A stretch of DNA of 64,000 nt from the NCBI RefSeq assembly GCF_058153355.1, contig NZ_CM177019.1; one strand, given 5' to 3'. The notes beneath the pieces were generated by a model. That model saw only the letters and a program-made list of their open reading frames with translations, did no database searches and had not been told where the DNA came from. The stretch's first letter is position 1; each line of letters starts with the position of its first letter. This document shows positions 15,012 to 63,954 of the stretch, one piece after another. A program made the position numbers and the translations under genes.

Positions 15012-15647
15012 ATGAACACTCTCGCAAATATCCAGGAACTCGCGCGCGCACTGCGCAACATGATTCGCACCGGCCTTGTCGTCGAAACCAACCTTAAAGC
15101 CGGTCGCTGCCGTGTGCAGACCGGTGGCATGTGCACCGACTGGCTTCAGTGGCTGACCTGTCGTGCCGGTCGTTCGCGCACATGGTGGGCACCTTCCGTG
15201 GGGGAACAGGTGCTGATTCTGGCCGTGGGCGGTGAACTCGACACGGCGTTCGTTCTGCCGGGGATTTATTCCGGCGATAACCCTCCGCCGTCTGCGTCGG
15301 CGGATGCCCTGCATATCCGTTTCCCTGACGGGGCGGTGATTGAGTATGAACCTGAAACCAGTGCACTGACGGTAAGCGGAATTAAAACGGCCAGCGTGAC
15401 GGCTTCTGATTCTGTTACTGCCACGGTGCCGGTGGTCACGGTGAAAGCATCAACCCGCGTTACCCTGGACACACCGGAGGTGGTCTGCACCAACAGGCTG
15501 ATTACCGGCACGCTGGAAGTGCAGAAGGGCGGGACGATGCGCGGCAACATTGAACATACCGGCGGTGAACTTTCATCAAACGGGAAGGTACTGCATACCC
15601 ATAAACACCCCGGCGACAGCGGCGGCACAACCGGGAGTCCTTTATGA
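15012..15647 (+). CDS. V: Baseplate spike/assembly protein gpV
   Basis: 211 aa; P2 synteny. Confidence 0.85.
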   Translation: MNTLANIQELARALRNMIRTGLVVETNLKAGRCRVQTGGMCTDWLQWLTCRAGRSRTWWAPSVGEQVLILAVGGELDTAFVLPGIYSGDNPPPSASADALHIRFPDGAVIEYEPETSALTVSGIKTASVTASDSVTATVPVVTVKASTRVTLDTPEVVCTNRLITGTLEVQKGGTMRGNIEHTGGELSSNGKVLHTHKHPGDSGGTTGSPL

Positions 15648-15991
15648 CAGCGCGTTATCTCGGAATGAATCGCAGTGATGGCCTGACTGTCACTGACCTT
15701 GAGCATATCAGCCAGAGTATCGGCGATATCCTGCGTACGCCGGTCGGCTCGCGGGTGATGCGTCGTGATTACGGCTCGTTGCTGGCATCAATGATTGACC
15801 AGCCGCAGACCCCGGCGCTTGAGTTGCAGATTAAGGTTGCCTGTTACATGGCCGTGCTGAAATGGGAACCCCGCGTCACCCTGGCATCCGTCACCACGGC
15901 GCGCAGCTTTGACGGTCGAATGACAGTTACGTTAACCGGCCAGCATAACGACACCGGCCAGCCACTTTCGTTAACCATCCCTGTGAGTTGA
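15644..15991 (+). CDS. W: Baseplate protein gpW (GPW/gp25 lysozyme-like family)
   Basis: 115 aa; start overlaps the V stop. Confidence 0.85.
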   Translation: MTARYLGMNRSDGLTVTDLEHISQSIGDILRTPVGSRVMRRDYGSLLASMIDQPQTPALELQIKVACYMAVLKWEPRVTLASVTTARSFDGRMTVTLTGQHNDTGQPLSLTIPVS

Positions 15992-15995
15992 AACC

Positions 15996-16904
15996 ATGCC
16001 GATTATCGACCTGAACCAGCTACCCGCACCGGATGTGGTTGAGGAGCTGGACTTTGAAACCATTCTTGCCGAACGCAAGGCGACACTGATTTCCCTTTAC
16101 CCGGAAGACCAGCAGGAGGCGGTCGCCCGTACCCTGACGCTGGAATCCGAGCCTCTCGTCAAACTGCTGGAGGAAAATGCTTATCGCGAGCTTATCTGGC
16201 GTCAGCGTGTGAATGAGGCCGCACGGGCGGTAATGCTGGCCTGTGCCGCCGGTAATGACCTTGATGTGATTGGTGCCAATTACAACACCACGCGCCTGAT
16301 TATCACCCCGGCAGATGATTCGAACATTCCGCCGACACCGGCAGTGATGGAGTCTGACACTGATTATCGTCTGCGTATTCAGCAGGCGTTTGAGGGCTTA
16401 AGCGTCGCCGGGTCGGTGGGAGCCTATCAGTATCATGGTCGCAGTGCTGACGGGCGTGTCGCGGATATCTCTGTCACCAGTCCGTCTCCCGCCTGTGTCA
16501 CCATCTCTGTGCTGTCCCGCGAAAATAACGGTGTCGCATCCGAAGACCTGCTGGCTGTGGTACGTAACGCCCTTAATGGCGAGGACGTCAGGCCGGTGGC
16601 CGACCGCGTGACCGTGCAGTCTGCCGCCATTGTTGAATACCAGATAAACGCCACGCTTTACCTTTACCCTGGTCCCGAAAGCGAACCCATCCGCGCTGCC
16701 GCCGTGAAAAAGCTGGAAGCGTACATCACAGCACAGCACCGGCTGGGGCGCGACATCCGTCTGTCTGCCATTTATGCCGCCTTGCATGTGGAAGGCGTGC
16801 AGCGTGTCGAACTGACTGCACCACTGGCCGACATTGTGCTCAACAGTACGCAGGCGTCTTTCTGTACAGAATACCGCGTCGTGACCGGAGGCTCGGATGA
16901 GTGA
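15996..16904 (+). CDS. J: Baseplate protein gpJ
   Basis: 302 aa; P2 synteny. Confidence 0.85.
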   Translation: MPIIDLNQLPAPDVVEELDFETILAERKATLISLYPEDQQEAVARTLTLESEPLVKLLEENAYRELIWRQRVNEAARAVMLACAAGNDLDVIGANYNTTRLIITPADDSNIPPTPAVMESDTDYRLRIQQAFEGLSVAGSVGAYQYHGRSADGRVADISVTSPSPACVTISVLSRENNGVASEDLLAVVRNALNGEDVRPVADRVTVQSAAIVEYQINATLYLYPGPESEPIRAAAVKKLEAYITAQHRLGRDIRLSAIYAALHVEGVQRVELTAPLADIVLNSTQASFCTEYRVVTGGSDE

Positions 16905-28098: not shown

Positions 28099-28125
28099 AA
28101 AAAATAAGCCCGTGTAAGGGAGATT
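28099..28125. other. attR: Prophage attR core (P2 att core sequence)
   Basis: aaaaaataagcccgtgtaagggagatt matches the P2 att core as I recall it; coincides with the cyaR terminator. Confidence 0.6.
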
Positions 28126-28185
28126 ACACAGGCTAAGGAGGTGGTTCCTGGTACAGCTAGCATTTTATGGGTTATGTTTTTCAGC
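28099..28185 (-). ncRNA. cyaR: Hfq-dependent sRNA CyaR (RyeE)
   Basis: Minus-strand sequence gctgaaaaacataacccataaaatgctagctgtaccaggaaccacctccttagcctgtgtaatctcccttacacgggcttatttttt matches CyaR from memory, with terminator hairpin and U-run; downstream of yegQ as in K-12. Confidence 0.8.
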
Positions 28186-28219
28186 GAAACGGATGATAAC
28201 CTTAATAAATGCAGCTGTA

Positions 28220-43124: not shown

Positions 43125-43265
43125 GGAGGTAGGCCGACGATTTCAGCGGGACGCTGAAACGGGAAAGCCCCTCCCGAGGAAGGGGCCTTAAATAAGGAAA
43201 GGGTCATGATGAAGTGGATCATCATCGTGGTGCTCTTAGTCGTTAGCTACCCAGCTTACTAAGAC
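43125..43265 (-). ncRNA. sib: Sib antisense sRNA (antitoxin) overlapping ibs copy 1; ends approximate
   Basis: By established knowledge Sib RNAs (~140 nt) are encoded antisense to and fully overlap ibs; boundaries not determinable here. Confidence 0.35.
43206..43262 (+). CDS. ibs: Ibs-family small hydrophobic toxin peptide (MMKWIIIVVLLVVSYPAY)
   Basis: 18-aa ORF in repeat unit 1; resembles IbsA/IbsB of E. coli. Confidence 0.7.
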   Translation: MMKWIIIVVLLVVSYPAY

Positions 43266-43452
43266 TACCAGGGCGGGGGAAACCCCGCTCAACCCTCACT
43301 CCTGAAAATATGCCTTCACGGTCAGAATGTCAATCCGCAGGCTTTGCAGTCTGCGATCCTGCCAGCAAATATTCTTTGCGAGTCGTTACGCAATAATCAC
43401 AGATGAAACTATTTTATCTAAGCGTTAGCGATAGACTGCATTCAGGGCAAAA

Positions 43453-43593
43453 GGAGGTAGGCCGACGATTTCAGCGGGACGCTGAAACGGGAAAGCCCCT
43501 CCCGAGGAAGGGGCCTTAAATAAGGAAAGGGTCATGATGAAGATACTCATCATCGTGGTGCTCTTAGTCATTAGCTTACCGGCTTACTAAGAC
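43453..43593 (-). ncRNA. sib: Sib antisense sRNA overlapping ibs copy 2; ends approximate
   Basis: As for copy 1. Confidence 0.35.
43534..43590 (+). CDS. ibs: Ibs-family small hydrophobic toxin peptide (MMKILIIVVLLVISLPAY)
   Basis: 18-aa ORF in repeat unit 2. Confidence 0.7.
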   Translation: MMKILIIVVLLVISLPAY

Positions 43594-43780
43594 TACCAGG
43601 GCGGGGGAAACCCCGCTCTACCCTCACTCCTGAAAGTATGCCTTCACAATCAGATTGTCAATCCGCAGGCTTTGTAGTCTGCGATCCTGCCAGCAAATAT
43701 TCTTTGCGAGACGTTACGCAATAATCACATGTGAAACTATTTTATCTGCAAGTTAGCGATAGACTGCTTGCATGGCGAAA

Positions 43781-43921
43781 GGAGGTAGGCCGCCGATTTC
43801 AGCGGGACGCTGAAACGGGAAAGCCCCTCCCGAGGAAGGGGCCTTAAATAAGGAAAGGGTCATGATGAAGCTACTCATCATCGTGGTGCTCTTAGTTATT
43901 AGCTGGCCAGCTTACTAAGAC
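43781..43921 (-). ncRNA. sib: Sib antisense sRNA overlapping ibs copy 3; ends approximate
   Basis: As for copy 1. Confidence 0.35.
43862..43918 (+). CDS. ibs: Ibs-family small hydrophobic toxin peptide (MMKLLIIVVLLVISWPAY)
   Basis: 18-aa ORF in repeat unit 3. Confidence 0.7.
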   Translation: MMKLLIIVVLLVISWPAY

Positions 43922-44135
43922 TACCAGGGCGGGGGAAACCCCGCTCTACCCTCACTCCTGAAGTTATGTTACTCCACCCTTATTGTCAATCTGTAAGTCC
44001 ACGTTCTTGCGGGGCGAATAGCAAAACCCTCTGCGCTTATGGGCCGAATTCTGAAAGTTGCTTTGCCTGCTCTTATTTCATTATTGCAGTCGGTATGATA
44101 CCGGACCTCAATAATTCTCTAAGAAAGGATTTCTT

Positions 44136-57958: not shown

Positions 57959-59542
57959 TCACACCTCGTACTCCATCTCGCCATCCTTACGCAGCGGTAT
58001 AATCTGCACCTTCTGCACGCGATGGCTTTCCACCTGCAACGTTTTAAGCAAATAATCCCCCACCTGAACTTCTTCGCCAGGTTTTGGAATACGCTGTAAA
58101 TATTCCATCAACAGCCCGGCAATGGTGTGATATTCACGTTTTTCATCCAGCGGCAGCGGCACATATTGCACCAGATCTTCCAGCGGCATATGACCATTCG
58201 CCGTCCAGGAACCGTCCGCATTCTTCTGAATATCATGGCGGGCGTCGATCTCTTCCACTTCGTTCGGTAAGTTACCGGCAATGGTTTCAGTGACGTCACT
58301 TAATGTCACAATCCCTTCCACCGAGCCAAACTCATCCACCACAAAAGCAAAGTGTGTGCGGGCATTACGGAACTGCTCCAGGGCAGGTAACAACGGCAAG
58401 GTTTCCGGGAACACCAGCGGCTGGCGAATCAACACCCGCAGGTTGAGCGGTTCGCCACGCAGTGACTGTTGTAGCAGGTCGATAACGTGAACAACACCGA
58501 GCAAATCTTCTGCGTCATCACCGTCGGTAACCACCAGCCGCGTATGCTGATTTCGCTCCAGCAACTGGCGGATCTCGTCTTCCGGCGCGTTGAGATCGAT
58601 ATGCTCAATATCGTGGCGCGACGTCATAATGCTGCTGACAGTACGCTGGTTAAGATTAAGTACCCGCTCAATCATCCGCCGTTCCTGCGGATTAAAGATC
58701 TGCTGGTTACCATGATCCACCAGCATGGACGCGGTTTCGGCGTCCAGTTCCGCATCTTCTTTTTGCCCGCTAAGCAGGCGCATTACCGCTTCGGTAGTCC
58801 GCTGGCGTAGCGTCTGGTTAGCGGAAAGAAAACGTCGCCGGTTAAAGATAGCCAACTGATTGAGCGCCTCGATCATCACCGAGAAACCAATGGCAGCGTA
58901 CAGGTAGCCTTTCGGAATGATGAAGCCGAAACCTTCTGCCACCAGGCTAAAGCCAATCATCAACAGGAAGCTTAAGCAGAGAATAACGATGGTCGGGTGA
59001 CTGTTAACAAATTGCGTTAACGGCTTGCTGGCCATCAACATCAGGCTGATAGCGATAACCACGGCGGCCATCATGACCAGTAAATGGTCGACCATCCCGA
59101 CGGCGGTAATCACTGAGTCGAGTGAGAAGATGGCGTCCAGTACCACAATTTGTGTCACCACCCCCCAGAACTTCGCACCTTTGCGTTGTGTGGGATTATT
59201 GCTGTCTTTCCCTTCCAGCCGTTCGTTCAGCTCCATCGTGGCTTTGAACAACAGGAAGAAACCACCAAACAGCATGATTAAGTCGCGGGCGCTAAAGGTA
59301 AACGAGCGGAAGCTGAACAGCGGTTGCGTCAGGGTGACCAGCCAGGAGATTGACGCCAGCAGTAACAGGCGCATTAACATCGCCAGCAACAGCCCGGTAA
59401 CCCGTGCGCGGTCGCGCTGCTTCGGCGGTAGTTTTTCGGCGAGGATGGCAATAAAGACCAGGTTATCAATGCCGAGGACCAGTTCGATCACAATCAGCGT
59501 GATTAACCCGGCCCAGATAGACGGATCGGCAATCCATTCCAT
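57959..59542 (-). CDS. yegH: TerC/CBS-domain membrane protein YegH
   Basis: 527 aa from [13 protein letters not shown] (track ORF extends to 59608). Confidence 0.9.
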
Positions 59543-60010
59543 AGTAAGTACAAAACCTATTCGTTGTATGACAAATGTCACAATTCGATCATGGATAAAT
59601 CGGGGCAAAAATGCAATGTTGCAGCACTATTTATCTCATATTATTTGAGGGTAATAACCTCACATTATCCCTGAATTAAAAGTGGTAATAATAAAACATT
59701 ATTTAAGAAATATCGCATGTGGAGGCGCAATATTAAATATTGTCAACCTAAAGAAACTCCTAAAAACCATATTGAATGACACTTAATATAATTCTTAAAA
59801 ATAGCCAATTGCCGAATTGTTACCTTGCCTGCTATTCCGTTAGCTGTAACACTTCCTCCTGCATTATTGGAGAGCCAATATTCAATTACCATAATGTCAC
59901 CTTATATTCGGAAGTTAATTTCCGCAATAACCCTTGCTCATCAACGATTGTATGCAGAGAGGGTTTGAAAAATTAAGCTAAATCAGTGTGTTGGTAGCTA
60001 AAAAGCCAGG

Positions 60011-60022
60011 GGCGGTAGCGTG
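60011..60022 (+). promoter_or_regulatory. ops element (GGCGGTAGnnTG) of a JUMPstart sequence in the wza leader, RfaH antitermination site
   Basis: ggcggtagcgtg about 180 nt upstream of wza. Confidence 0.65.
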
Positions 60023-60200
60023 TCTGGATGCCTGAAAGACCAGTCTGAATTATTCTGTCAATAGCCTGCGGATGAAATCAATTTTTTTAGGACTGATGCC
60101 AGTTAAATTTTTATTCAATTAACTGCAAGGTAAATGTGCATGGCGACATTGCTATTAATAGTGCACAGGATAATTACTCTGCCAAAGTGATAAATAAACA

Positions 60201-61340
60201 ATGATGAAATCCAAAATGAAATTGATGCCATTATTGGTGTCAGTAACCTTGATAAGCGGTTGCACAGTACTTCCGGGCAGCAATATGTCGACGATGGGGA
60301 AAGACGTCATCAAACAGCAGGACGCTGATTTCGATCTCGACAAAATGGTGAATGTTTATCCGCTGACCCCGCGCCTGATTGACCAATTACGCCCACGTCC
60401 GAATGTAGCGCGCCCTAATATGACGCTGGAAAGTGAGATCGCGAATTACCAGTATCGCGTCGGGCCGGGGGACGTTCTTAATGTCACCGTCTGGGATCAC
60501 CCGGAACTCACCACGCCAGCCGGTCAGTACCGCAGCTCCAGCGACACCGGCAACTGGGTACAGCCTGACGGCACCATGTTCTACCCGTATATCGGCAAGG
60601 TCCACGTCGTGGGGAAAACGCTCGCTGAAATCCGCAGTGATATTACCGGGCGCTTAGCGACGTACATCGCTGACCCGCAGGTGGACGTTAATATCGCCGC
60701 CTTCCGCTCGCAAAAAGCCTATATCTCCGGCCAGGTGAATAAATCCGGTCAACAGGCGATTACCAACGTACCACTGACCATTCTCGATGCCATCAACGCC
60801 GCAGGTGGCCTGACCGACACCGCTGACTGGCGCAACGTGGTGCTAACACACAATGGTCGTGAAGAGCGCATTTCTTTGCAGGCGCTGATGCAAAACGGCG
60901 ACCTCAACCAGAATCGCCTGCTTTACCCCGGCGATATTCTCTACGTGCCACGTAATGATGATCTGAAAGTATTTGTGATGGGTGAAGTGAAGAAACAGAG
61001 CACCCTGAAAATGGACTTTAGCGGCATGACCCTGACTGAAGCTCTGGGCAATGCCGAAGGTATCGACATGACCACCTCCAACGCCAGCGGCATCTTTGTC
61101 ATTCGTCCGCTGAAAGGCGAGGGCGGGCGTAACGGCAAGATTGCCAATATCTACCAGCTGGATATGTCCGATGCCACGTCGCTGGTGATGGCGACAGAAT
61201 TCCGCCTGCAACCTTATGACGTGGTGTATGTCACCACCGCCCCGGTTTCCCGCTGGAACCGTCTGATCAATCAGTTGCTGCCAACTATTAGCGGTGTCCG
61301 TTACATGACGGATACAGCCAGCGACATTCATAACTGGTAA
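60201..61340 (+). CDS. wza: Outer-membrane polysaccharide export lipoprotein Wza (colanic acid)
   Basis: 379 aa, lipobox LISGCTV. Confidence 0.95.
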
Positions 61341-61345
61341 TCGTC

Positions 61346-61789
61346 ATGTTTAACAACATCTTAGTTGTCTGTGTCGGCAATATTTGCCGTTCCCCGACGG
61401 CGGAACGCTTACTGCAACGTTATCACCCGGAGCTGAAAGTGGAGTCCGCTGGACTCGGCGCGCTGGTCGGTAAGGGCGCTGATCCTACCGCTATCAGCGT
61501 CGCCGCAGAACATCAACTGTCTCTGGAAGGTCACTGTGCCCGTCAAATCAGCCGCCGTCTGTGTCGCAACTACGACCTGATTTTGACCATGGAAAAGCGC
61601 CATATCGAACGCTTATGCGAGATGGCACCCGAGATGCGCGGCAAAGTGATGCTGTTTGGTCACTGGGATAACGAATGTGAAATCCCCGATCCGTATCGCA
61701 AAAGCCGGGAAACGTTTGCAGCGGTGTACACATTACTTGAACGGTCTGCCCGCCAGTGGGCGCAGGCATTGAACGCAGAGCAGGTATAA
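61346..61789 (+). CDS. wzb: Low-molecular-weight protein-tyrosine phosphatase Wzb
   Basis: 147 aa, CX5R motif CVGNICRS. Confidence 0.95.
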   Translation: MFNNILVVCVGNICRSPTAERLLQRYHPELKVESAGLGALVGKGADPTAISVAAEHQLSLEGHCARQISRRLCRNYDLILTMEKRHIERLCEMAPEMRGKVMLFGHWDNECEIPDPYRKSRETFAAVYTLLERSARQWAQALNAEQV

Positions 61790-61791
61790 GA

Positions 61792-63954
61792 ATGACAGAA
61801 AAAGTAAAACAACATGCCGCTCCGGTAACGGGCAGTGATGAAATCGATATTGGTCGCCTGGTCGGCACCGTCATTGAAGCGCGCTGGTGGGTGATTGGCA
61901 TCACCGCTGTATTTGCCCTCTGTGCCGTGGTTTACACCTTCTTCGCCACGCCGATTTATAGTGCCGACGCACTGGTACAAATCGAGCAAAACAGCGGCAA
62001 TTCGTTAGTGCAGGATATCGGATCGGCGTTAGCCAACAAACCGCCTGCATCGGACGCCGAGATCCAGTTGATTCGTTCGCGTCTGGTGCTTGGTAAAACG
62101 GTGGACGATCTCGACCTCGATATTGCAGTGAGCAAAAACACGTTCCCGATTTTCGGTGCGGGCTGGGATCGCCTGATGGGACGTCAGAACGAGACGGTGA
62201 AAGTGACCACCTTTAACCGCCCGAAAGAGATGGCGGATCAGGTGTTTACGCTTAATGTGCTGGACGATAAAAACTACACCCTGAGCAGCGACGGCGGCTT
62301 TAGCGCCCGTGGGCAAGCGGGCCAGATGCTGAAAAAAGAAGGCGTCACGCTGATGGTTGAAGCCATTCACGCCCGCCCGGGCAGTGAGTTTACCGTCACC
62401 AAATACTCCACGTTGGGGATGATCAACCAACTGCAAAACAGCCTGACGGTAACGGAGAACGGCAAAGACGCAGGCGTACTGAGCCTGACTTATACCGGTG
62501 AAGATCGCGAACAGATCCGCGACATTCTTAACAGCATCGCCCGTAACTATCAGGAACAAAATATTGAGCGCAAATCGGCGGAAGCGTCGAAAAGCCTCGC
62601 TTTCCTCGCGCAACAGTTACCGGAAGTACGTAGCCGCCTCGATGTTGCCGAAAACAAACTGAATGCCTTCCGTCAGGATAAAGATTCTGTTGATCTGCCG
62701 CTGGAAGCGAAAGCGGTGCTCGATTCGATGGTGAACATCGACGCGCAGTTGAACGAACTGACCTTTAAAGAGGCGGAAATCTCCAAGCTGTACACCAAAG
62801 TTCACCCGGCGTACCGCACGCTGCTGGAGAAACGTCAGGCGCTGGAAGAAGAGAAAGCCAAACTTAACGGTCGCGTAACGGCGATGCCGAAAACCCAGCA
62901 GGAGATTGTGCGCCTGACCCGCGATGTCGAGTCTGGTCAGCAGGTCTATATGCAACTGCTGAATAAAGAGCAGGAGCTGAAAATCACCGAAGCCAGCACC
63001 GTCGGCGATGTGCGCATTGTTGACCCGGCAATCACCCAGCCTGGCGTGCTGAAACCGAAGAAAGGGCTGATTATCCTCGGCGCGATTATCCTTGGCCTGA
63101 TGCTTTCTATCGTGGGTGTGCTGCTGCGCTCGTTGTTTAATCGCGGCATCGAAAGCCCGCAGGTGCTGGAAGAACACGGTATCAGCGTCTATGCCAGCAT
63201 CCCGCTGTCGGAATGGCAGAAAGCGCGCGATAGCGTCAAAACCATCAAAGGGATTAAACGCTATAAACAGAGCCAGCTACTGGCGATGGGGAATCCAACC
63301 GATCTGGCGATTGAAGCCATCCGCAGTCTGCGTACCAGTTTGCACTTCGCGATGATGCAGGCACAGAACAATGTGTTGATGATGACCGGGGTTAGCCCGT
63401 CAATCGGTAAAACCTTTGTCTGCGCCAACCTGGCGGCGGTGATCAGCCAGACCAATAAACGGGTGTTGTTGATCGACTGCGATATGCGCAAAGGCTACAC
63501 CCACGAGCTGCTGGGCACTAATAACGTTAATGGCCTGTCGGAAATTCTGATTGGTCAGGGCGATATTACTACCGCTGCTAAACCGACCTCTATTGCCAAA
63601 TTTGACCTGATCCCGCGCGGTCAGGTGCCGCCAAATCCTTCTGAACTGTTGATGAGCGAACGCTTTGCCGAACTGGTGAACTGGGCGAGTAAAAACTATG
63701 ACCTGGTGTTGATTGATACGCCGCCGATTCTGGCAGTGACCGATGCGGCAATTGTTGGTCGTCATGTTGGAACCACGTTAATGGTGGCGCGTTATGCGGT
63801 CAACACATTGAAAGAAGTGGAAACCAGTCTGAGCCGCTTTGAGCAAAACGGTATTCCGGTGAAAGGGGTGATTCTGAACTCCATCTTCCGCCGCGCCAGC
63901 GCGTATCAGGATTATGGCTATTACGAATACGAATATAAGTCGGATGCGAAATAA
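61792..63954 (+). CDS. wzc: Tyrosine autokinase / polysaccharide copolymerase Wzc
   Basis: 720 aa from MTEKVKQHAAP (track ORF starts at 61756); Walker A GVSPSIGKT; C-terminal tyrosine cluster YQDYGYYEYEYK. Confidence 0.95.
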   Translation: MTEKVKQHAAPVTGSDEIDIGRLVGTVIEARWWVIGITAVFALCAVVYTFFATPIYSADALVQIEQNSGNSLVQDIGSALANKPPASDAEIQLIRSRLVLGKTVDDLDLDIAVSKNTFPIFGAGWDRLMGRQNETVKVTTFNRPKEMADQVFTLNVLDDKNYTLSSDGGFSARGQAGQMLKKEGVTLMVEAIHARPGSEFTVTKYSTLGMINQLQNSLTVTENGKDAGVLSLTYTGEDREQIRDILNSIARNYQEQNIERKSAEASKSLAFLAQQLPEVRSRLDVAENKLNAFRQDKDSVDLPLEAKAVLDSMVNIDAQLNELTFKEAEISKLYTKVHPAYRTLLEKRQALEEEKAKLNGRVTAMPKTQQEIVRLTRDVESGQQVYMQLLNKEQELKITEASTVGDVRIVDPAITQPGVLKPKKGLIILGAIILGLMLSIVGVLLRSLFNRGIESPQVLEEHGISVYASIPLSEWQKARDSVKTIKGIKRYKQSQLLAMGNPTDLAIEAIRSLRTSLHFAMMQAQNNVLMMTGVSPSIGKTFVCANLAAVISQTNKRVLLIDCDMRKGYTHELLGTNNVNGLSEILIGQGDITTAAKPTSIAKFDLIPRGQVPPNPSELLMSERFAELVNWASKNYDLVLIDTPPILAVTDAAIVGRHVGTTLMVARYAVNTLKEVETSLSRFEQNGIPVKGVILNSIFRRASAYQDYGYYEYEYKSDAK

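Follow-up and report, generated by a model that had tools for sequence, protein, structure and literature searches.

The recognition of ops by RfaH has been dissected base by base (Zuber et al. 2018, PMC5995543), and the published mechanism, supported by a crystal structure, is one in which RfaH recognises the non-template DNA (PMC5995543). Within the non-template strand, a small hairpin closed by the C3:G8 pair presents G5 and T6 to RfaH. In the single-base scan of that study, G4C, G5A, A7T and G8C abolished RfaH recruitment, C3G and T6A lowered it about three-fold, G2C was without effect, and G12C removed the pause at U11 with RfaH recruitment remaining (PMC5995543). T11-G12 is the pause-inducing dinucleotide and is common to all validated RfaH targets (PMC5995543).

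For the colanic-acid operon, the ops/JUMPstart element in front of wza and a role of RfaH are already known. The wca operon has been treated as JUMPStart-RfaH controlled (PMC9976346, with reference to Hobbs & Reeves 1994 and Stout 1996), and colanic acid has been called RfaH-regulated (PMC3101779). Among 42 ops-like sites in the uropathogenic E. coli strain CFT073, only 8, including that of wza, are located in leaders, and RfaH bound every one of these (PMC9765446). The ChIP-seq signal at the wza ops was obtained in a delta-hns delta-stpA background and was lost in delta-rfaH, and a sigma-70 ChIP peak was found upstream of wza (PMC9765446). Wza-wcaM was termed a "cryptic" RfaH locus with a promoter that is silenced by H-NS in rich medium, and because of this silence RfaH was seen at wza only when both H-NS and StpA had been deleted (PMC9765446). 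Less documentation exists for a physiological contribution of RfaH at wza under Rcs induction than in the case of the operons rfa, rfb, hly and kps.

Position of the ops element and identity of the locus

The sequence GGCGGTAGCGTG at positions 60011-60022 of the plus strand is an exact match to the ops consensus GGCGGTAGnnTG, a 12-mer with two free positions, and the only exact match on either strand of the window, by which we mean the whole 64-kb stretch of DNA that was analysed. The bare 12-mer is by itself only modestly unlikely and not overwhelmingly so: 0.09 matches are expected per window, and at least one match was found in 9 of 100 dinucleotide-preserving shuffles. With one mismatch allowed, 9 ops-like sites were found in the window, including the true ops, versus 3.6 ± 1.7 in the shuffles, none of which attained 9; one of the other 8 sites is GGCGGTAGTTTT at 59424-59435. 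G+C-rich codon usage is the probable cause of this surplus, since the shuffles lose the codon structure.

The ops forms the 3' end of a complete JUMPstart element of 39 nt (59984-60022, plus strand), which is made up of a CAGTG motif on the 5' side, a small hairpin (arms, 59991-59995 and 60005-60009) and the ops itself. The Rfam covariance model RF01707 matched this element from model position 1 to 38 of 38 with 53.8 bits (gathering score, 35) and with E values of 2e-11 in a local search and 1.6e-9 for the whole window, in which it was the sole RF01707 match. The first-pass annotation had seen in 60011-60022 a fit to the ops consensus; the fit turned out to be exact, without a second one in the window, and to be the tip of a full JUMPstart. 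Two further RNA families are represented elsewhere in the window on the minus strand, namely, a gene for the small RNA CyaR/RyeE at 28102-28187 (RF00112, 100.7 bits) and three tandem genes for SIB (Sib antitoxin) RNAs at 43191-43989 (RF00113, 136 to 140 bits each). K-12 has two SIB genes at this locus, and relative to it the window strain appears to carry an extra copy.

The ops lies on the strand of wza, i.e., in sense orientation on the non-template strand, and its last base is 179 nt before the wza ATG (60201). All bases for the non-template hairpin and for RfaH contact (the C3:G8 pair, G4, G5, T6 and A7), which make up the core C3-G8 at 60013-60018, are present, and so are T11 and G12 for pausing at 60021-60022 (base roles from Zuber et al. 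2018, PMC5995543). The first gene of the operon, wza (60201-61340, plus strand), encodes an outer-membrane polysaccharide export protein (NCBIfam NF011658, 729 bits; cut-off, 333) that is identical to WP_000978094.1, annotated as Wza. It is followed on the same strand by wzb (61346-61789), the gene for a low-molecular-weight protein-tyrosine phosphatase (equivalog NF007520, 329 bits; cut-off, 243), and by wzc (61792-63954), the gene for a tyrosine autokinase (equivalog NF008568, 1516.6 bits; cut-off, 1068). The paralogous Etp model on Wzb and the Etk-type model on Wzc stayed below their own cut-offs. With RF01707 far over its threshold and Wza, Wzb and Wzc equivalogs encoded downstream, the earlier placement of an ops/JUMPstart in a wza leader was borne out.

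The divergent upstream neighbour is yegH, a TerC-family gene, which is preceded by asmA, and the order yegH, leader, wza is not interrupted by a wzi gene between JUMPstart and wza. Since Wzb and Wzc are of the colanic-acid type, yegH is the neighbour and wzi is absent, the gene content identifies the locus as the colanic-acid (cps/wca) operon rather than a group 1 capsule cluster. After the stop codon of wzc, 46 nt remain in the window. In an E. coli genome with a 100% identical yegH-wza intergenic region, 20 co-directional genes extend over about 24 kb from wza to wcaM, and wcaA-wcaM, gmd, fcl, cpsB, cpsG, wcaJ and wzxC were seen there; the next JUMPstart-bearing unit after wcaM is galF-rfb. 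The long polysaccharide operon that had been postulated downstream of the ops is thus found in the closest genome. This genome with the identical wza leader, that of E. coli MEI005, carries an IS621 between cpsB and cpsG (15074-16054 of locus L090), i.e., inside the colanic-acid operon, and another IS621 past the 3' end of yegH; the latter copy is absent from the window, so that the window does not come from this genome. The yegH-wza intergenic region has 655 nt and a GC content of 33 to 39%, compared to 51 to 58% in the flanking genes, and such an AT-rich leader fits the reported binding of H-NS. The rfaH gene maps elsewhere in E. coli and is not expected within the window.

Conservation within E. 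coli and across genera

Of 5426 complete E. coli genomes, 4831 contain the yegH-wza intergenic region, in nearly all cases with at least 95% identity, and that of K-12 is 97.9% identical to the window. The JUMPstart 39-mer is identical in 387 E. coli genomes and one base off in 4143. The comparison with the K-12 wza leader, which the first-pass annotation had named as a check, revealed the same base at 38 of the 39 JUMPstart positions, an identical ops and the same distance to wza; the single difference is at 59990 (JUMPstart position 7), outside the hairpin and the ops, where the window has G and where K-12 and every other sampled genome have A. The G at 59990 is a minority allele among complete E. 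coli genomes. A 55-mer (59991-60045) that includes the ops and leaves out this variable position was found without any change in 4241 of the 4821 E. coli genomes having the region. Conservation of the motif in other E. coli wza leaders, on which the earlier reading had been made to depend, is thus the rule. A variant class of the 55-mer comprises 576 genomes, and its three sampled members change only 60028 or 60036, 3' of the ops. The wza leader is missing from about 11% of the complete E. coli genomes, and an IS1-linked deletion of most of the cluster is one route to this state: in E. coli KE51 (locus L002, 5084-6105), an IS1 stands directly after yegH, and wza to most of wcaL is deleted.

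Across genera, a Wza protein scan with one genome per species yielded 80 loci, which belong to no fewer than 18 named genera of the Enterobacteriaceae, and the ops counts refer to the 79 loci with upstream sequence. An exact GGCGGTAGnnTG was found in 72 of the 79 wza leaders, with its last base 177 to 188 nt from the ATG; in one leader with an insertion the distance is 297 nt. In four leaders, the ops found there deviates from the consensus at one position (G12 to A in three, G2 to A in one). The remaining three, from Pseudescherichia vulneris, Escherichia sp. ESNIH1 and the metagenome-assembled genome UBA7338, are without the entire JUMPstart; here (L036, L037 and L040; about 2650-2990 in each) it is replaced by unrelated sequence, and the promoter block, the distal leader and wza are kept. 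By alignment, these Pseudescherichia-group leaders represent a natural loss of the putative RfaH loading site, and because the three lineages keep wza without JUMPstart, the element is not indispensable for retention of the operon. An RF01707 scan of a 20-locus panel gave the same picture: JUMPstart was detected, at the same place, in the wza leaders of 15 of the 18 loci from other genera and in both E. coli controls (the rfb locus of L002, and L089), and it was found in none of the three Pseudescherichia-group loci. With the ops kept in 76 of 79 wza leaders, the ops assignment holds beyond E. coli as well.

Within the 12-mer, positions 1, 3-9 and 11 are invariant in all 76 leaders, and changes are confined to positions 2 (one change), 10 (11 changes) and 12 (three changes). 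For comparison, third-codon sites of wza in the same genomes have a mean identity to the window of 58%, and 2.8% of them are invariant; the leader segment just 5' of JUMPstart (59860-59983) is not alignable between genera. This pattern shows very strong purifying selection on JUMPstart/ops that is focused on the RfaH-contact bases. It also bears on the idea that the ops match arose by chance or is a vestige without present function, an idea for which the occurrence of the bare 12-mer in shuffled windows leaves some room. Against it stand the full-length RF01707 match with an E value of about 1e-9 for the window, the constant position and almost perfect conservation in 76 of 79 leaders next to a segment that cannot be aligned, and the RfaH occupancy published for the orthologous site (PMC9765446). 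For practical purposes, the conservation data thus refute a chance or vestigial origin, to which we assign next to no probability.

Another function that could be maintained at this place is that of a consensus elemental pause which acts mainly independently of RfaH, for example, by providing loading time for the ribosome or another factor, with RfaH being of minor importance here. Such a role would agree with the finding that RfaH occupancy of wza was observed only on deletion of hns and stpA (PMC9765446) and with the three lineages that manage without JUMPstart. However, the central positions 3-8, all of them invariant here, vary in the general consensus for pausing; it is contact with RfaH, and not the pause, that requires them (PMC5995543). 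The pause base G12, in contrast, is among the few positions with natural variation, being changed from G to A in three lineages. The natural variation among wza leaders affects position 10 plus positions 2 and 12, the latter two of which were non-blocking in the published scan (PMC5995543), and never the contact core. Since the variation spares the RfaH-contact core and hits G12, selection tracks RfaH recognition rather than pausing alone, and we consider a predominantly RfaH-independent pause very improbable.

Predicted promoter, leader and RNA structure

The conservation profile and the alignment of the 80 leaders revealed a sole promoter-like sequence that is conserved across genera, 59825-59853 on the plus strand, which is the likely cps/wza promoter. 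It has a -35 element TTGCCT (59825-59830), a spacer of 17 nt to the -10 hexamer, and an extended -10 element TGTAACACT (59845-59853) with TG at 59845-59846 and the hexamer at 59848-59853; in other genera the hexamer reads AACAAT. A weak -10 element of this kind would fit an activator-dependent promoter. A scan with the promoter consensus had a single sigma-70 match, TGGAGA/CATAAT at 59868-59895, and we rejected it as the main promoter because the sequence is not conserved in other genera, giving preference to the TTGCCT / TGTAACACT block. From the latter, transcription is predicted to start near 59860, which would place the ops at about +150 of a leader of about 340 nt. The statement in the first-pass annotation that the ops marks the start of the transcript has to be corrected in this respect: with a predicted start about 150 nt 5' of it, the ops would mark the RfaH loading point inside the leader and not the transcript start. 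The start site of this transcript was reportedly mapped by Stout in 1996.

Upstream of the promoter, the sequence TAATATAATTCTTA (59784-59797, plus strand; reverse complement, TAAGAATTATATTA) agrees with the published RcsB pseudopalindrome TN(G/A)GAN4TC(T/C)NA (PMC7913699) at 7 of its 8 constrained positions and resembles the Klebsiella RcsAB box TAAGATTATTCTCA (PMC3438125). It is nearly invariant across genera, its centre lies about 70 nt 5' of the predicted transcription start, and conservation and consensus match together suggest an RcsAB-box-like operator. A second Rcs box may, tentatively, be seen in TAAAGAAACTCCTA (59749-59762, plus strand), part of a larger stretch of conserved sequence (59740-59766): the right half of TAAAGAAACTCCTA, TCCTA, has the sequence of the RcsAB-box half-site, and by manual count 10 of 14 positions agree with the RcsAB consensus TaAGaatatTCctA. 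In many E. coli genomes other than K-12, the NCBI pipeline calls a 49-aa "hypothetical protein" (WP_162829205.1) at about 59743-59892 on the minus strand. This open reading frame runs antisense over the RcsAB-box and promoter blocks, and part of it falls where conservation between genera is absent; the gene call is probably spurious. Annotation pipelines leave the intergenic region blank or put a doubtful 49-aa open reading frame there, and JUMPstart (59984-60022) with the ops (60011-60022) is worth annotating as a regulatory feature.

The rest of the 5' leader, 178 nt from the ops to the wza ATG (60023-60200, plus strand), was analysed by conservation profile and alignments. The blocks 60050-60064, 60085-60108, 60120-60128 and 60153-60200 are more than 90% conserved across at least 18 genera; they comprise ATTATTCTGTCAATA, TTTTTAGGACTGATGCCAGTTAAA, ATTAACTGC and, directly before the wza ATG, 45 nt that are almost invariant, and they persist in the lineage that lost JUMPstart. 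The blocks include an AGGA, followed by a mini-ORF of eight codons (ATG at 60094; MPVKFLFN). Its start codon is ATG in 59 of 80 leaders and ATA or ATT in 17, and it is eight codons long in 52; present in only about two thirds of the leaders and so not universal, this mini-uORF is a doubtful candidate for what keeps the blocks conserved. CsrA sites at the GGA-containing blocks were considered and discarded, as a published electrophoretic mobility shift assay on the wza 5' untranslated region was negative (PMC6333774). The leader was also compared with the 5' end of wza, of which it might have been a diverged copy, but the local alignment score was 18 and was equalled by 156 of 1000 shuffles. 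Likewise, the argument that a Shine-Dalgarno sequence is missing from RfaH targets was dismissed for wza as support for ribosome recruitment by RfaH: the best duplex of wza with the anti-Shine-Dalgarno sequence has -5.3 kcal/mol versus a mean of -4.7 for random 25-mers, with -5.9 for wzb and -6.5 for wzc, and these energies do not discriminate. The conserved blocks might constitute an undescribed control module, e.g., one at which ribosomes are loaded or coupled once RfaH has been recruited, or one that is bound by an unknown regulator. We regard this as a rather unlikely possibility, and the blocks are the only part of the locus with potential for novelty.

JUMPstart is filed by Rfam as a cis-regulatory RNA with a hairpin, and signs of RNA structure were looked for as well. 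The JUMPstart RNA folds with -7.4 kcal/mol (z = 0.28; 117 of 200 shuffles fold as well), and folding of the whole leader was no better than that of shuffles (z = 0.08). RNAalifold, applied to 40 diverse leaders, predicted 17 base pairs with zero compensatory changes, and no structure supported by covariation was found in the leader downstream of the ops. The sole change in the hairpin among these 40 leaders is a one-sided change from U.G to U-A at the closing pair. A long-range pairing proposed by RNAalifold between UUGGUA of JUMPstart and UGCCAG at 60096-60101 was not supported, and the downstream block is conserved where JUMPstart is absent. The 12-nt ops as single-stranded DNA forms a marginal hairpin of -0.9 kcal/mol.

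JUMPstart could also, or even mainly, act as RNA, either as a cis-regulatory RNA or as a short leader-derived RNA that titrates RfaH in the way of RirA. RirA ("RfaH interacting RNA") derives from the waaQ leader. It inhibits the effect of RfaH on expression of the waa operon (PMC11014345), and apart from this precedent and the Rfam classification, an action as RNA would account for the observation that the 5' half of JUMPstart (CAGTG and both hairpin arms) is nearly as conserved as the ops, although RfaH contacts only the ops. On the other hand, the hairpin has no thermodynamic signal, no compensatory change occurred among the 40 diverse leaders, and the published mechanism and crystal structure are those of non-template DNA recognition (PMC5995543). 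Altogether, a function as RNA appears improbable, and recognition of the ops as DNA by RfaH is the reading that we follow below.

Probable recruitment of RfaH and comparison with known systems

The element is very probably the ops/JUMPstart of the colanic-acid (cps/wca) operon leader, which loads RfaH for antitermination. Recruitment of RfaH, which the first-pass annotation had proposed, is supported by the conservation pattern of the ops and by ChIP, a check that it had suggested and that is published for the orthologous wza ops of CFT073, where the signal is gone in delta-rfaH (PMC9765446). That RfaH acts in this way in the strain analysed here, and how strongly it affects colanic-acid output, are inferences.

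The events at the leader would be as follows. Transcription would start at the Rcs-activated and H-NS-silenced promoter, putatively located about 150 nt 5' of the ops, and RNA polymerase reaching 60011-60022 would pause at T11-G12. The exposed non-template strand would then fold into the C3:G8 hairpin presenting G5 and T6, and RfaH would read this hairpin and replace NusG on the polymerase; with refolding of the C-terminal domain of RfaH, a contact to the ribosome would also be possible. The RfaH-modified polymerase is expected to resist pausing, Rho-dependent polarity and H-NS roadblocks, and because it withstands these obstacles, the promoter-distal genes of the wza-to-wcaM operon of about 24 kb would be expressed. 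The RfaH loading site would thus be the place at which the colanic-acid operon gains its resistance to premature termination and to H-NS roadblocks, which is of relevance for mucoidy, biofilm formation, resistance to phage and stress, and engineered production of colanic acid. The small addition made here to the known role of the element is the measurement across genera, by which selection is shown to act precisely on the RfaH-contact bases, and one lineage, the Pseudescherichia group, without JUMPstart.

Compared to the Rfam family RF01707, in which JUMPstart is modelled as an RNA hairpin, the wza orthologues have neither compensatory changes nor a stability signal. The operons for which control by RfaH is validated (rfa/waaQ, rfb/wzx, hlyCABD, kps and tra) share the 12-nt consensus, including T11-G12, with the ops of the window (PMC5995543, PMC9765446); they have it at the same position of the leader on the non-template strand, and the same mechanism is expected. 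The JUMPstart that precedes rfbB in one E. coli genome scores 61.1 bits with RF01707. Unlike the promoters of these operons, the wza promoter is silent in standard laboratory culture, being silenced by H-NS (PMC9765446), and is activated by RcsA/RcsB (PMC9976346).

The group 1 capsule (K-antigen cps) clusters of E. coli and Klebsiella likewise have a JUMPstart with ops before a wza-wzb-wzc export module (PMC3438125). In Klebsiella, however, the element lies in the promoter 5' of wzi, wzi precedes wza, and the cluster is located behind galF (PMC3438125), whereas in the window wza follows directly after the leader, with yegH as the neighbour, Wzb as well as Wzc being colanic-acid equivalogs and not Etp/Etk. 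E. coli 23CRST012 has a second export cluster of the wza/wzb/wzc type (L089, 3883-8038), which carries a JUMPstart of its own (60 bits) and adjoins remnants of IS26 and IS5 immediately behind P2-like phage genes; a setting of this kind suggests that the capsule module is mobile. The closest known counterpart of the element described here is the JUMPstart in the cps (wza-wcaM) leader of E. coli K-12, an orthologous element with the same neighbours, yegH and wza, from which that of the window differs in a sole base, the G in place of A at 59990.
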